Both the position numbers and the translations under genes were made by a program. A model generated the notes under the pieces. It was not told the origin of the DNA. It made no database searches and saw only the letters and a program-made list of their open reading frames with translations. A stretch of DNA of 64,000 nucleotides from an uncultured bacterium (GTDB lineage: Bacteria; Bacillota_I; Bacilli_A; RF39; UBA660). Of this stretch, positions 3,332 to 8,059 are shown piece by piece (position 1 is the stretch's first letter; each line of letters opens with the position of its first letter). The stretch lies in the NCBI GenBank assembly GCA_947169285.1, contig CAMVPB010000001.1:77226-141225 (forward strand), in the 5' to 3' direction.

Positions 3332-5563
3332 TTATCTGCTTTTACCTATATCTTTAAAGTCAACATGATATTTTTCATAAAAATTATTAGGATCATTTCT
3401 ATACTCATCTACATTTTTAGGGGTTACCATAAATCTATTGCAATGAATACAATATGTTAATTTATCTGGTAATATTACTCCATCTAAATTAGTTAAATAA
3501 GGTGCAAAAACACGTTTCCCAATATTTGTATTTGATAAATCCAAGCCCTTTGCATTAGTTAAACTATCTAAACATAAGATTCCAGCTATATACTCAGTAT
3601 TCGAAAAATCTAAGCCTTCTAGAGATGTTAATGAGTTAAGTGCTAAATCCCCATAAATGTATTTTGACAATAACAAACCTTTAGCATTGGTTAAAGATTT
3701 TAAATATAAATTTCCAATAGTTGGAGGTAGTGTCAGTCCTTCAGCGCTTGTTAAAGATTCCAAATCCAAGCCTCCAATAAATTCAGGCAATTTTAATCCT
3801 TTAGCACTAGGTAAAGATTTTAATGATATGTAGATGGATTTAGTTTTGGGTAAAATTAAACCCTCAGCATTAGTTAAAGAATCTAAATACAGCCATTTAA
3901 TATCTATATTTGATAAGTCCAAGCCTTTTGCGCTGGTTAAACCATTTAAATATAAGGCTCCTATAAATTCAGTATTAGAAAAATCTAAATCTTCTGCGCT
4001 GGTCAGTCCAGAGAAAAACGCATGTTCTTTAATAGTTTTAGGTAATTTCAATCCTTTAGCATTAGTTAAAGAATTTAAATACAACCCTTCAATATTTGTT
4101 TTTGATAAGTCCAAGCCTTCTGCACTAGTTAAACCATTTAAATATAAGGTTCCTATAAATTCAGTATTAGAAAAATCTAAATCTTCTGCACTGATCAACC
4201 CAGAGAAAAGCGCATCTCCTAAAATATTTTTAGGTAATTTTAATCCTTTTGAATCAGTTAAATTATTGAAATATAAATTTCCGCCTATATTTTTGCTGGA
4301 TAAATCTAAACCTTCTGCACTAGTTAAATGGCTTAAATCTAAATTTCCTACTATTGCGTCAACATCTCTTAATATAAGATTTAAGTCTTTAACATTATCC
4401 CTCGTAACTAGTATTTCTTTTATTCTCGGATCTTTCCTGTATCCAAACCCTTCTATTTCATAATTAATTTCATATAGAAATCTTAATTCTTCTATAGATA
4501 ATTCTTCATTATTTTTCCATTTATTATAAATATCTGTCATTTGTTTCATGTCATTAACTATTTTATAATACTTATCTTTATCTGGAAAATCTTTAATCTT
4601 TTCTGCTACTACTTCTTCCATCTCGGGTTCTAGATTTTGACTATTTGCTATTCCTCTTATTTCTCCAATTTCACCATGTTCCATTCTTATAGCTATTCTC
4701 GGAATTTTATATTCACCTTTTTCATCTAAAGTATAGTATACATAAAAATCTCCATCTGCCAATTGCGATTTAGCAGTGCTTTCTCCTGCTGTACACCATC
4801 CTGTATTATAACCTTGTAATGATTTTGCAAGTAGCATATGGTCACTACCTTGATTATATTTTACCCATCTACCTTCATTTCTTTTAATAATGTTTTCATT
4901 ATTACTTAATACATTTTTTAAAATATAAGGATATATTTTTTGAAATGATCCACCAGCTACAATTTTCTCTAACTCTTGGTCTTCTATCTTTTCTTTTCCT
5001 ATATATTTTATTAAATAATCCATAGACATAGATAGTGCTTCTTGATTTAAATCAGCAAATGGTGCTACTGTTTCTTTTGTTCTTTTATTAAATGTTCCTT
5101 TAGATTTATCATAAAATCCTAATCTTAACATTCCTTGAAATGCCCAATATTTTGCCCAAAATGGATAAAATTTAGAATCATCATTAAAGAAATAATCAAG
5201 CCAATTTTCTAAACTTTTCTTTTGATTATTTATTACTTCATTTGCTAATTCTTGCTTTTGTTCACTTGTAATTTTAACATGACCAAAGCCTCTTTCTAAT
5301 GCTATCCTTTGTTGATTTTGATAATAACTATCTGGAATATCCTCTTTTTTGATTACATACTTTTCCATGTATAATCTTTTTAATGTATCAGTTCTTCTCT
5401 CAGTTTGAGTAGCTCTATCATGCACTCTTTCTAGTGTATTTAAATATTCTTCTATATTATTAAACTTATCAATTTCATTTCCACTTGAGTGATGTAATAC
5501 TTCTTCACTTTTATATAAGTCTTTATAAAGTTTATCAATAAATCTTAATACATCTTTATCCAC
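3332..5563 (-). CDS. large protein: N-terminal unknown domain with W-C-T/GDFYV signature + C-terminal BspA-type leucine-rich repeats
   Basis: 743 aa; central ...YNTGWCTAGESTAKSQLADGDFYVYY...IAIRMEHGEIGEIRGI...; C-terminal half is >12 tandem ~23-aa repeats (LTSAEGLDLS.../LTNAKGLKLP...). Paralog of 5972..8059. Confidence 0.7.
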   Translation of the reverse strand: MDKDVLRFIDKLYKDLYKSEEVLHHSSGNEIDKFNNIEEYLNTLERVHDRATQTERRTDTLKRLYMEKYVIKKEDIPDSYYQNQQRIALERGFGHVKITSEQKQELANEVINNQKKSLENWLDYFFNDDSKFYPFWAKYWAFQGMLRLGFYDKSKGTFNKRTKETVAPFADLNQEALSMSMDYLIKYIGKEKIEDQELEKIVAGGSFQKIYPYILKNVLSNNENIIKRNEGRWVKYNQGSDHMLLAKSLQGYNTGWCTAGESTAKSQLADGDFYVYYTLDEKGEYKIPRIAIRMEHGEIGEIRGIANSQNLEPEMEEVVAEKIKDFPDKDKYYKIVNDMKQMTDIYNKWKNNEELSIEELRFLYEINYEIEGFGYRKDPRIKEILVTRDNVKDLNLILRDVDAIVGNLDLSHLTSAEGLDLSSKNIGGNLYFNNLTDSKGLKLPKNILGDALFSGLISAEDLDFSNTEFIGTLYLNGLTSAEGLDLSKTNIEGLYLNSLTNAKGLKLPKTIKEHAFFSGLTSAEDLDFSNTEFIGALYLNGLTSAKGLDLSNIDIKWLYLDSLTNAEGLILPKTKSIYISLKSLPSAKGLKLPEFIGGLDLESLTSAEGLTLPPTIGNLYLKSLTNAKGLLLSKYIYGDLALNSLTSLEGLDFSNTEYIAGILCLDSLTNAKGLDLSNTNIGKRVFAPYLTNLDGVILPDKLTYCIHCNRFMVTPKNVDEYRNDPNNFYEKYHVDFKDIGKSR

Positions 5564-5644
5564 GTTATCACCTAATATAATTATAACATGTATATATAAT
5601 TATTAAAAGTATATTCACACTTCATTTACTATAAAATGAATAGC

Positions 5645-5690
5645 AATTCAAAAAAAAGATATTGATTGTCACAAGTCAATATCTTTTTCT
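5645..5690. terminator. bidirectional Rho-independent terminator hairpin (13-bp stem AAAAAGATATTGA...TCAATATCTTTTT with A-run/T-run flanks)
   Basis: Near-perfect inverted repeat seen directly in sequence between the 69-aa ORF and LRR protein 1. Confidence 0.6.
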
Positions 5691-5878: not shown

Positions 5879-5971
5879 TAATAAAAATCTATTTTATATT
5901 TTCACACTTTCAAAAGAGTCATCAAATAATTCAACTTCCATTTGAAGGAGCAAATTTTCTATTTAATAATT

Positions 5972-8059
5972 TTATCTTTTTATTGAATTTTCTTTATGTA
6001 TTCTGTGTCCTGTTTCATCAAATTCTTGATGATATTTGTAATCCATATTTTCACTGCCACACACATAGCCCAAATATTCAAGTTTTCTAAAATCATTAAT
6101 ATATGAATTAAAAGTTGTAATTGCGCCTATATGTTTAAGATTTCCTAAATCTTTAATTTCTGAATATCCAAATAATGCTTCTCCACCAATAGTTGTTAAA
6201 TTTCCTAAATCTTGAACTCTAGAGTAATGAAACACTGCATCTCCTCCTATTGTTGTTAGATTTCCTAAAGATTCAGTTCCTAAACTTGAAAATAAAGCAT
6301 TTCCAACTATTATTGTTAGATTGCCTAAATCTTTAATACTTGGAGGGAAGTAAACATCACCAACTATACATTTATATGGGCAAATCTCTATTGTTCTATA
6401 TTCTTCATCAAATTTAAAATCAATATTTCCTACGGCAATTTCACTCTCGTCACAGCCAAAATATTCTGCAAAATTTTTCTTTATTTTTAGTAATAAACTT
6501 TTTAGTTTATCTTTGTTAGTGCTTTTTCCAAAATGCGCTTTAAATTCATAATTGCCAAAACAATCCTCTATTAATTGTTTTACATCCTTAGTTTCAAAAG
6601 TTCCATTCTCAATATCATGTATGTATTTTATTAGTCTTTTATTCCATTCTTCTTTTCTTAACCACTTATCTCCATTCTTTATCTCTTTATTATTTTCTAA
6701 AAATGATATTGCTACTTTTCTATAGTCTTCCTCTAATTCTTGGGCATTACCATTTAGTATTCCTCTTACTTCATCTATTTCATTACCACTTGTTTTAACT
6801 GCTATATGTGGTTTATTGTCATTATCTACAAATACATAAAAATCCCCTTGGGCAAGTTGTGTTGAAGCTAAAGTCTTAGTACACCATGGTGTATCTTTTA
6901 CTAATGATGATAACTCTTGTGCATTTTTTAAATAGTTTTTTTCATCAGATGTTTTTCCATCAAATTTTATCCAATGCCCCATCCCATGTGTATCTACATT
7001 TTCTAATGAAATATTATTTCTTTGTGAGATTGTTTGATTAAATATTTCTAGTCCTGCAAAATATAAATTTGCAAAGCTATTATAATTATCTACATTATTA
7101 TATATTGTATTTAATACTGTTTCATTCAATGTCATATGACTAGATATTGTTTCATGCATATTTCTTTTGTTAACTATTGTTTTCTTTCCATTTGTTGTAT
7201 CTAGTTTATATGTCTTTAATAATGTCTCTCTTAACATTAATGCTTTAAATGAATCTTCATATGAAGTTCCTTTTATAAAATCTACTATATGTCTATATTC
7301 TTCATATAATTGATTTGTAAAATGATTTGAAAGTTCTTTTAGCGTTTGTTCTTTATAACTTTTATAATAAGATGTGTCTTCTCCTCTTGATTCTAATGCT
7401 TTTAACTCACTTTCATATTCTCTTATTATATCTTTACTTTCTGGATTTATCACAAAATCTTCTTTAGGTAAATTATATAATCTTTCTAATTCTCTTTTTA
7501 TGTCTTCTTGTATCTTTTCTTGTCTTCCTTCTTTTTGTGGAAATATATGTTCTTTTCCATCATAAAAATTTAAGACAAATAACTTATCCCATTTTGGCAT
7601 ATTCATATTATTTATTTGACTTGTTAAACTTAAATTCAAATACCTTTTTTGTTCTAAACTCTTTGTTATTTCTTTTAATACATAGTCTCCTAGTTTTAAT
7701 CCTTGATCATAAGTGAATATATAATTACCTGTTAATATATCTATTACTATTTCTGTATCAATTATTCCTCTTTGTATTTCTTCTTCACTATATAATCCAC
7801 TATATCTTAAATAGTATTCACTTCTTATTTTTTCTAATTTATCTTCATTTAACTTTAATATTTCTTCTTTTATTCTTTGAAATATTTCATCATTTTCAAA
7901 GAAATGTAATAGTTCATGTTTATTTACTTTTTCTATATCGTTAGAGTTTCCATTTATATAAATAGTATTTCCTAAAGAGTATCCTTCTATTTCAGAATCA
8001 GTAATAAATTCAGTTTTTAATCCAAATTGTTTATTAAACTCTATTATCTTTTCTTTCAT
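5972..8059 (-). CDS. large protein: N-terminal HExxH-containing region + W-C-T/GDFYV domain + C-terminal BspA-type LRRs
   Basis: 695 aa; N-terminal KHELLHF (HExxH); central ...DTPWCTKTLASTQLAQGDFYVFV...PHIAVKTSGNEIDEVRGI... matching the paralog at 3332..5563; C-terminal GNLTTIGGDAVF/GNLTTIGGEALF repeats. Confidence 0.7.
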   Translation of the reverse strand: MKEKIIEFNKQFGLKTEFITDSEIEGYSLGNTIYINGNSNDIEKVNKHELLHFFENDEIFQRIKEEILKLNEDKLEKIRSEYYLRYSGLYSEEEIQRGIIDTEIVIDILTGNYIFTYDQGLKLGDYVLKEITKSLEQKRYLNLSLTSQINNMNMPKWDKLFVLNFYDGKEHIFPQKEGRQEKIQEDIKRELERLYNLPKEDFVINPESKDIIREYESELKALESRGEDTSYYKSYKEQTLKELSNHFTNQLYEEYRHIVDFIKGTSYEDSFKALMLRETLLKTYKLDTTNGKKTIVNKRNMHETISSHMTLNETVLNTIYNNVDNYNSFANLYFAGLEIFNQTISQRNNISLENVDTHGMGHWIKFDGKTSDEKNYLKNAQELSSLVKDTPWCTKTLASTQLAQGDFYVFVDNDNKPHIAVKTSGNEIDEVRGILNGNAQELEEDYRKVAISFLENNKEIKNGDKWLRKEEWNKRLIKYIHDIENGTFETKDVKQLIEDCFGNYEFKAHFGKSTNKDKLKSLLLKIKKNFAEYFGCDESEIAVGNIDFKFDEEYRTIEICPYKCIVGDVYFPPSIKDLGNLTIIVGNALFSSLGTESLGNLTTIGGDAVFHYSRVQDLGNLTTIGGEALFGYSEIKDLGNLKHIGAITTFNSYINDFRKLEYLGYVCGSENMDYKYHQEFDETGHRIHKENSIKR

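Follow-up and report, generated by a model that had tools for sequence, protein, structure and literature searches.

Architecture of the Two Genes

Two neighbouring open reading frames (ORFs) on the minus strand of the window, by which we mean the whole 64,000-nucleotide stretch of DNA from an uncultured bacterium that was analysed here, encode large proteins that we name W1 and W2, the products of 3332–5563 and 5972–8059, respectively (Table 1). A preliminary description of this DNA had reported such a pair, and both ORFs, together with all of the peptides that it quoted, are found where it placed them. Each protein carries a central core domain of the same kind and ends in an array of leucine-rich repeats (LRRs), and it is this core, which recurs in many cellular and phage proteins, that is the main subject of this work. 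The window is AT-rich (G+C of 23–28%), and the helical N-terminal region of W1 includes a predicted β-hairpin. No signal peptide and no hydrophobic or membrane segment is found in either protein, and both are predicted to be cytoplasmic.

Homologs of W1 define family 1 (W1-type proteins) and those of W2 define family 2 (W2-type proteins). Residues 1–395 of W1 have more than 3,364 homologs and the non-repeat part of W2 has 331, and none of these carries a functional annotation; the few names attached to them at source are either "hypothetical protein" or one evidently mis-assigned JGI label. An exact copy of W2 is present in the public collection (P0121). Single-sequence searches of the PDB with W1 and W2 returned LRR or chance matches only, tblastn of W1 residues 1–395 against the INPHARED phages and the PLSDB plasmids gave no match, and neither did megablast of positions 1–14200 of the window against phages.

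Table 1. Features of the W1/W2 locus, in window coordinates
Feature	Position	Strand	Details
Large serine recombinase	1310..2914	-	adjoins W1; Pfam Resolvase, Recombinase, Zn_ribbon_recom, DUF4368
W1	3332..5563	-	743 aa; GTG start, AGGTGA Shine-Dalgarno before start; helical N-terminal region, core, short helical region, ~13 LRRs
W1 LRR array (residues 413–690)	3494..4327	-	~13 units of 20–23 aa
W1 core (residues 223–346)	4526..4897	-	near-invariant: T254, W256, C257, T258, Q267, G271, D272, F273, P288, A291, R293, E301, R303, G304, Q309
W1 Cys257 codon	4793..4795	-	conserved Cys; start of predicted helical turn 257–259, followed by helix 261–270 (DSSP)
Two-gene cassette (57-aa ORF and W2)	5961..8244	-	~2.3 kb; only neighbourhood DNA common to the loci of the closest relatives
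W2	5972..8059	-	695 aa; ATG start; zincin-like HExxH N terminus, helical region, core, helical region, 4 BspA/TpLRR-type repeats
W2 repeat array	6092..6331	-	4 × 20 aa, DLGNLTTIGGxAxFxxSxxx
W2 core (residues 353–478)	6626..7003	-	core residues T390, W392, C393, T394, Q401, G405, D406, F407, P417, A420, K422, E430, R432, G433, Q440
W2 Cys393 codon	6881..6883	-
W2 zincin-like region (residues 1–115)	7715..8059	-	HExxH at residues 48–52, nucleotides 7904–7918
57-aa ORF	8034..8207	-	MEEKVIVKSYDGKLVSVPLSKKEEYLKIQKEIKRLLDSGKSKEEVLRIINERKDNRV; overlaps W2 start codon by 26 nt

A Core Common to Two Families

The preliminary description took W1 and W2 as paralogs sharing a central block. The shared block is real, as BLASTP aligns W1 223–334 with W2 353–468 at 34% identity (E 2e-12), and hhalign, applied to the two family profiles limited to the block, gives a 99.2% match (E 2.3e-19, score 110), the maximum in 20 column shuffles being 19.4. 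A whole-length profile alignment had extended the homology over ~340 columns, and this was rejected because the core alone gives the score once the proteins are split. With the core removed, W1 1–222 and W2 150–352 score 17.5 (shuffled maximum 19.2), in agreement with the earlier remark that the N-terminal regions differ, and the short region that follows the core is marginal between the W1 and W2 profiles (23.8 versus 22.7 shuffled). Since the homology is confined to the core, W1 and W2 are not recent duplicates but members of two old, separate families with one domain in common.

Upstream of the core, W1 148–177 and W2 282–316 both have a predicted β-hairpin followed by "KR," a conserved T/I and "LN(E/Q)xxL." These elements align in register, with a similarity that is not statistically significant.

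The core is a discrete α/β domain of ~125 residues, which we name the WCT domain, and its conserved constellation reads T-x-W-C-T ... Q ... G-D-F ... P-x-x-A-x-R ... E-x-R-G ... Q. A core-only profile searched against 1.84 billion representatives recovered 1,847 clusters at 50% identity, of which 1,283 had E ≤ 1e-10, and the core is accordingly a very large unannotated superfamily. Conservation was followed in a deep alignment of 187 sequences, composed of cellular representatives and phage versions (32–45% identical to the query profile). In the numbering of W1, Trp-256, Pro-288 and Gly-304 are present in all 187 sequences, Cys-257, Gly-271, Ala-291 and Glu-301 in 186, Gln-309 in 185, Phe-273 in 184, Arg-293 also in 184 (with Lys in the other three), Thr-254, Asp-272 and Arg-303 in 183, and Thr-258 in 181. 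Conservation of the core thus holds as the preliminary description had supposed, with a Cys that is essentially invariant, phage versions included.

The same description had proposed that this Cys and a downstream His form a catalytic dyad, and here the alignment speaks otherwise. The His of the W2 sequence "PHIAV" (His-418), which stands directly after the invariant Pro, is conserved within W2's own family but is replaced by Arg in W1, and the column as a whole holds Arg in 142 sequences, Glu in 35, Gln in 5, Ser in 2 and His in 1 (n = 187). Nowhere in the domain does His make up more than 24% of a column (at most 44 of 187), and His-295 of W1 is not conserved.

Relation to PcfJ

PcfJ of the Enterococcus faecalis plasmid pCF10 carries PF14284 at residues 287–433 (149 bits). 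When the core profile was aligned with this single sequence, PcfJ 371–440 fell in register with it, Cys to Cys, pairing "LRHCVG" with "TxWCTG," "TTIVFIR" with "GDFYVYY," "PYFTLEY" with "PxIAVRM" and "VIQIQGKCNRQ" with "IxEVRGxxxxQ." Against a shallow plasmid-derived PcfJ profile of 8 sequences, hhalign gave the core a match of 71% (E 3.7e-5, score 34.7, 97 columns), and a deeper core profile gave 57% (E 1.1e-4); in the controls, the scores were 12.1 for the reversed core and at most 17.5 over 20 column shuffles. The Pfam model of PF14284 matched neither W1 nor W2 even at E ≤ 1, and none of 60 diverse relatives at E ≤ 0.01. The shallow PcfJ profile and the lack of a Pfam match argue for distant relatedness and not for membership, and on sequence comparison the core is a distant relative of the PcfJ-like domain rather than part of PF14284. 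This supersedes the preliminary statement that the core could not be placed in a known family.

Common to PcfJ and the core are x-C-x-G, a hydrophobic strand, P-x-x-T/A-x-E/R and I-x-Q/E-x-x-G-x3-4-Q. PcfJ has H-C before and at the Cys (H-C-V-G) whereas the WCT family has the invariant W-C-T, and it lacks the G-D-F and E-x-R-G of the core. The N-terminal half of PF14284 (PcfJ 287–370) has no counterpart in the core, only columns 69–176 of the PcfJ profile being aligned, and PcfJ proteins, unlike W1 and W2, have no LRRs. The two domains are alike in their setting, both being found on mobile or conflict-related DNA. On four plasmids (L189, which is pCF10, and L190, L193 and L194) the PcfJ-domain gene overlaps or abuts a gene annotated as a Cas9 inhibitor (anti-CRISPR) of the AcrIIA9 family. 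In Streptococcus ruminicola, a giant SNF2-related gene comes after that for PcfJ.

The Core in Giant Phage Proteins

The core is encoded on 49 IMG/VR contigs. In complete phage ORFs it usually lies in the middle of a protein of ~2,800–3,700 residues (34 ORFs exceed 2,500 aa), and the other phage versions are truncated ORFs or shorter proteins of 679 and 758 aa. The giant ORFs match W1 and W2 over the ~125-residue core only. LPD38 was found near the C terminus in all three giant ORFs that were scanned, and this domain has been listed as confined to phage-type polyvalent proteins, which are predicted to be packaged and injected with the DNA (PMC5512222). On contig L107 the giant gene comes directly after that of an internal-virion lytic transglycosylase, and on L130 a "DNA ejection protein" is encoded three ORFs upstream of the 758-aa version, which is itself followed immediately by a segment similar to the C terminus of the giant protein. 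The core thus forms part of giant polyvalent proteins of phages, whose genes lie among those for internal virion proteins and DNA ejection, and its occurrence there supports the conflict or effector flavour that the preliminary description had seen in W1 and W2.

These giant proteins, which are of the polyvalent kind described by Iyer, Burroughs, Anand, de Souza and Aravind in 2017 (PMC5512222), have the core in common with W1 and W2 and, like W2, an HExxH upstream of it; the 2017 paper makes no mention of PcfJ. W1 and W2 differ from them in being cellular proteins of ~700 aa that are not virion-associated and that end in LRRs, and the Pfam LPD models match neither of the two. All 34 giant ORFs have exactly one HExxH (LLHEGTHAAxERV), 336–518 residues upstream of the core, and that of W2 lies ~310 residues upstream. 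A 98.8% match over the whole span had suggested homology of W2 and the phage proteins beyond the core, and this was lost once the core was removed: the zincin part then scores 14.8, with the HExxH in register (shuffled maximum 16.1), and the linker also 14.8 (shuffled maximum 23.7). The order of zincin and core in W2 and the phage proteins is best described, at the level of sequence, as an architectural parallel for which homology is not demonstrable.

Repeat Arrays and Variable C Termini

Both proteins end in LRR arrays, as the preliminary description had it, but the assignment to the BspA/TpLRR type has support for W2 only, through relatives that match PF13306, and the repeats of W1 resemble the internalin type instead. 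Those of W1 have the consensus LT[SN]A[EK]GLxL[SP]xxxIxGxLxLxS and find their best match in internalin A (E 9.4e-5), with LRR_EndoS below threshold. Within the W1 array there is a recent tandem duplication of 192 bp, or three repeats, which Tandem Repeats Finder reports at 3841–4273 with a period of 192, 2.3 copies and 85% matches. The same program finds a period of 60 at 6135–6337 in the array of W2. Pfam has no match to W2 itself, and its relatives match PF13306 (LRR_5) and PF01030.

The arrays vary in length among close relatives. W2 relatives that fall within single clusters at 90% identity measure 694, 734, 774, 794, 814, 834 and up to 933 aa, in steps of whole 20-residue repeats. Across the superfamily the core is followed by LRR_5, Recep_L, DUF4116 or pentapeptide repeats; Pfam matches to Glutaredoxin2_C, Thr_synth_N and SCD in relatives were discarded as spurious, being stretches of ~20 residues inside repeats.

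A different form of variation is seen in a viral contig (L082) that encodes a full-length W1-type protein (positions 67–390 of the family-1 hidden Markov model (HMM), E 8e-114). In place of LRRs, this protein ends in a variable repeat of 110 nt, and a template repeat, which begins 431 nt downstream of the start of the variable one, precedes a reverse transcriptase that has the motifs IGNLTSQ and YGDD. Adenines of the template are substituted at 24 of 32 positions and the other positions at 1 of 78 (p 2e-16), and the W1-like protein is a bona fide target of a diversity-generating retroelement (DGR). Targets of DGRs join a constant module to a hypervariable ligand-binding end, which is the logic of W1 and W2 as well, with the difference that DGR targets vary by adenine mutagenesis and W1 and W2 by gain and loss of LRRs. 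Independently, and in line with the relation of the core to PcfJ, a survey of DGRs reports that target genes of candidate-phyla bacteria (CPR) carry a "PcfJ-like" motif ahead of the variable repeat (PMC5758913). The window has no reverse transcriptase homolog anywhere, and a second DGR, in the form of a pair of template and variable repeats, was looked for in L039 and not found. The polymorphism in repeat number, the diversity of the C-terminal repeats and the DGR-mutagenised tail of this one W1-like relative bear out the earlier proposal that a constant core carries variable modules for recognition.

In the reverse transcriptase gene of L082, positions 10617–10720 form a perfect (AGAC)n microsatellite of ~100 nt that is in frame, as (DRQT)n, and reflects either an error of assembly or an unusual insertion into a finger or palm loop. 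Large serine recombinases (phrog_95) flank the DGR-bearing gene of this contig on both sides (2524–3882 and 11307–12917), which echoes the serine recombinase beside W1 in the window, and a Lon-like protease is encoded near it.

The W2 Cassette

The HExxH that the preliminary description noted in W2 is real, with His-48, Glu-49 and His-52 invariant in 53 family members and Glu-55, a downstream Glu, present in at least 90% of those sequences. Secondary structure prediction for the N terminus gives a helix (2–10), three strands (15–19, 26–29 and 32–36), the HExxH helix (42–52) and a second helix (58–70). This predicted topology fits the zincin core known from polyvalent-protein metallopeptidases (PMC5512222) and points to a zincin-like metallopeptidase. 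Pfam and NCBIfam have no match to this region. In six metagenomic loci (L170, L175, L176, L180, L181 and L184) the match to the W2 family begins at about residue 116–175 and there is none to a query containing the HExxH (residues 1–120), and the family thus seems to include members that lack a recognisable zincin domain.

W2 is preceded by a 57-aa ORF that has its own Shine-Dalgarno sequence (AAGGAG) and that contains the Shine-Dalgarno sequence of W2 (GAGGA). The small ORF is present upstream in 44 of the 47 family-2 loci for which there is upstream sequence, and its identity is 43–57% where the W2 homologs are ~50% identical. It is absent beside family-1 genes and beside viral genes, and it is a partner gene of W2-type proteins only. 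Neither Pfam nor the PDB families, including ribbon-helix-helix (RHH) and DUF1778 models, gave a match to it. In blastn searches, the cassette formed by the two genes is 88–90% identical to L131 and L133 and 80–82% identical to L132 and L134, with flanks that are not in common. As DNA similarity is limited to 5961–8244, the cassette sits at different places in different genomes.

Just upstream of the cassette is a non-coding segment of 237 bp (8223–8459) that recurs at 87% identity in L131 (6008–6242) and L133 (8–242), where it lies ~3.6 kb from the cassette and in the opposite relative orientation. A piece of it (8272–8373) also matches immediately upstream of the cassette in L131 and L133. 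The segment could be regulatory, or it could be a small intergenic element that is repeated or mobile.

Predicted Fold

AlphaFold (AF2) models were obtained for W1 1–395, with a mean predicted local distance difference test score (pLDDT) of 89 and a predicted template modelling score (pTM) of 0.83, and for W2 1–560, with a pLDDT of 82. In both, the core is predicted as β-α-α-β-β-β-α, a succession that corresponds to the N-terminal half of the fold of the GCN5-related N-acetyltransferases (GNATs). This is a lead at the level of the predicted fold and not an assignment to the family. Foldseek found nothing significant in the PDB (the best match being PCAF, E 1.5), a profile search of the PDB with the core gave chance matches only, and the GNAT HMMs (Acetyltransf_*) matched neither W1, W2 nor 60 diverse relatives. 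GNAT folds, those of the toxins TacT, AtaT and KacT included, have a sequence identity of 3–14% to the core, and an equivalent of its conserved Cys is found in MYST-type enzymes only.

The models place the Cys at what is probably the start of a helical turn leading into helix α2. The most conserved loop, E-x-R-G-x4-Q, would lie at the β4-α3 junction. In GNATs this junction is where the pyrophosphate of coenzyme A (CoA) is held.

Genomic Setting and Hosts

The preliminary description placed both genes inside a mobile element. A large serine recombinase does adjoin W1, but it is present at only 1 of 188 related loci and thus is a local feature and not part of the family's module, and close relatives of W2 lie among housekeeping genes. 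The hosts of W1-type genes are mostly gut Bacilli, Erysipelotrichaceae and "Tenericutes" metagenome-assembled genomes (MAGs), the others being Patescibacteria and a single MAG each of Nanoarchaeota and Caenarcanales. A MAG often has more than one such locus, and at four loci the W1-type genes are in tandem copies.

Discussion

We propose that W1 and W2 are conflict-system proteins in which a thiol-dependent domain is joined to a variable recognition module, a reading to which we give a probability of roughly 0.4. The core would be an enzyme with the Cys as nucleophile, built on a half-GNAT-like scaffold, in which Asp-272, Arg-293, Glu-301, Arg-303 and Gln-309 (in W1) may complete the active site. 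The likeliest chemistry would proceed through a covalent thioester or thioether intermediate, by which a group is moved to, or taken off, a protein or nucleic acid target, and would be other than Cys-His proteolysis. The C-terminal repeats would choose the target or sense a ligand, maybe a protein of an invader or a rival, and a protein of the W1 or W2 type would in this way act as a single-chain sensor and effector in genetic conflict. The zincin-like metallopeptidase of W2 may process W2 itself or a target, and the translationally coupled 57-aa protein would most plausibly restrain or regulate W2 in the fashion of an antitoxin.

Of the interpretation first offered for this locus, the conserved Cys core and the variable modules are retained, while the Cys-His dyad and a polymorphic toxin in the strict sense are given up. 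Against the latter stand the absence of a secretion or trafficking N terminus, the arrangement of the proteins, whose conserved part is N-terminal and central and whose variable part consists of repeats, and the absence of a recurring downstream immunity gene.

A number of observations weigh against the reading of W1 and W2 as conflict-system proteins. Scans of both with Pfam, NCBIfam and PHROG returned nothing meaningful, and a PADLOC scan of W1, W2 and five neighbouring ORFs (the 57-aa ORF lay outside it) gave no match, so that a defence role is without support from these databases. Most family members are surrounded by housekeeping genes, which is atypical of defence islands, and at 80 genome loci no neighbour recurs beside W1-type genes beyond syntenic housekeeping genes. 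The predicted core has no β5-α4-β6, the C-terminal half of a GNAT, with which the V-shaped CoA site between β4 and β5 is formed, and it lacks Q/R-x-x-G-x-G/A, the GNAT motif A, the corresponding loop being E-x-R-G-x4-Q. The Cys itself gives way to Ser in one family-1 homolog (P0118), and one of the 187 sequences aligned has Glu there. Nothing was found in the literature on the function of PcfJ. Finally, use by the cell against invaders and service to a mobile element may each account for these proteins, and both stand.

The absence of an assignable catalytic family and the prediction of only half of a GNAT-like fold would also be accounted for if the core were no enzyme but bound a nucleic acid, a nucleotide or a partner protein, or acted as an adaptor for one of these, with the Cys and charged residues lining a ligand pocket and the proteins serving purely as scaffolds or sensors. 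No activity is known for PcfJ, and many domains of polyvalent proteins are non-catalytic (PMC5512222). We consider this somewhat unlikely, because 13 polar, Gly or Pro positions are more than 96% conserved across sequences down to 32% identity, a pattern that is usual for active sites. Among these positions are a lone Cys, an Asp, a Glu, two Arg and a Gln, and no structural role is obvious for a single invariant Cys in a protein of the cytoplasm. A reading of the proteins as effectors of reduced-genome symbionts or epibionts, sent into a host or neighbour cell where the LRRs bind host proteins in the manner of YopM, IpaH or the internalins, draws on the concentration of the family in gut Bacilli, Erysipelotrichaceae and "Tenericutes" MAGs and its presence in Patescibacteria, Nanoarchaeota and Caenarcanales, and on the fact that LRR, DUF4116 and pentapeptide C termini are common in host-directed effectors. 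It is nevertheless quite unlikely, as there is no signal peptide, no recognisable secretion domain and no recurring set of secretion-system genes nearby, and as the core is found also in phage proteins of the virion or ejection module, whose presumed targets are bacterial.

The cassette itself recalls the type II toxin-antitoxin systems of the RHH-GNAT kind (TacAT, AtaRT, KacAT), in which case the core would be an acetyl-CoA-dependent acetyltransferase toxin. The small overlapping ORF in 44 of 47 loci, the strand-helix-helix pattern of its product and the best structural matches of the core, which are GNATs and include the toxins TacT3, TacT2, AtaT and KacT, all fit such a pair. The C-terminal GNAT half and the CoA-binding motif are missing, however, the 57-aa ORF matches no RHH or DUF1778 model, W1-type and phage versions are without such a partner, and W2, with 695 residues, a zincin domain and LRRs, is unlike the known GNAT toxins, so that we regard this as very unlikely. 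To the core as a Cys-His peptidase or transferase, the model of the preliminary description, we attach next to no credence. The conserved Cys and, within W2's family, the conserved His-418 would suit it, but the conservation data over the whole superfamily contradict it.

The proposal of a thiol-dependent domain with a recognition module can be extended, more speculatively, to all of the proteins considered here. In this wider scheme, which we hold to be unlikely as a whole, WCT and PcfJ domains would together form an unrecognised superfamily of thiol-dependent enzymes on a half-GNAT scaffold, which phages inject and plasmids carry to disable a host function. Bacteria and archaea with reduced genomes would have wired the domain to hypervariable sensors, either LRR arrays or DGR tails, as a single-protein immune sensor and effector, and the W2 type would be held under the control of a 57-aa inhibitor and a built-in zincin protease.

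Conflict-system proteins in which an effector-type domain stays constant and a recognition domain diversifies are of a known kind, and the core domain is found in polyvalent proteins and DGR targets too. What is new is the WCT domain family, which current libraries neither name nor detect. A connection of this family with PcfJ and with LPD38 proteins was not found in the literature searched, and the W2 cassette with its 57-aa partner appears to be undescribed. Abundant as the domain is (~1,850 clusters at 50% identity), none of Pfam, NCBIfam, PHROGs and PADLOC contains it. It ties together four groups that are usually studied apart, namely the PcfJ genes of enterococcal plasmids that have anti-CRISPR genes as neighbours, the giant polyvalent proteins of phages, the DGR-diversified proteins of candidate phyla and the LRR proteins of gut Mollicutes-like bacteria. 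The reaction of the WCT domain, once found, would give a function to all four at once and could uncover a new mechanism, either for the disarming of cells by phages and plasmids or for the sensing of invaders by cells. The W2 cassette and its conserved small partner provide a ready experimental handle.

Flanking Segments of the Window

At the left end of the window, positions 1–1231 are 69% identical in DNA to an Amidase_3/LysM gene that lies ~6 kb from the W2 homolog of L132. From this likeness, W1 and the recombinase (1310–5563) may be an insertion between genes that are otherwise loosely syntenic. Upstream of the cassette, 8463–12394 on the minus strand is a block of small genes typical of the replication modules of phages and plasmids. 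It encodes a protein resembling single-stranded DNA-binding protein (E 7e-4, below threshold), a DnaD_N/helix-turn-helix protein, DUF4160, two unknown ORFs and a uracil-DNA glycosylase of the family-4 type. In L131 the distance between a LysR gene and the cassette is ~1.6 kb, and on account of this short gap the block at 8463–12394 may be a second insertion.

A scan for promoters and terminators gave 54 sites against 51 expected and is uninformative in DNA as AT-rich as this. Between W2 and W1, at 5669–5878 on the minus strand, there is an ORF of 69 aa. The stretch "NKRSNYIHGS" in its product has an R-x4-H pattern reminiscent of the HEPN motif. The ORF lacks a convincing Shine-Dalgarno sequence as well as a significant Pfam match, and it may be a gene remnant.

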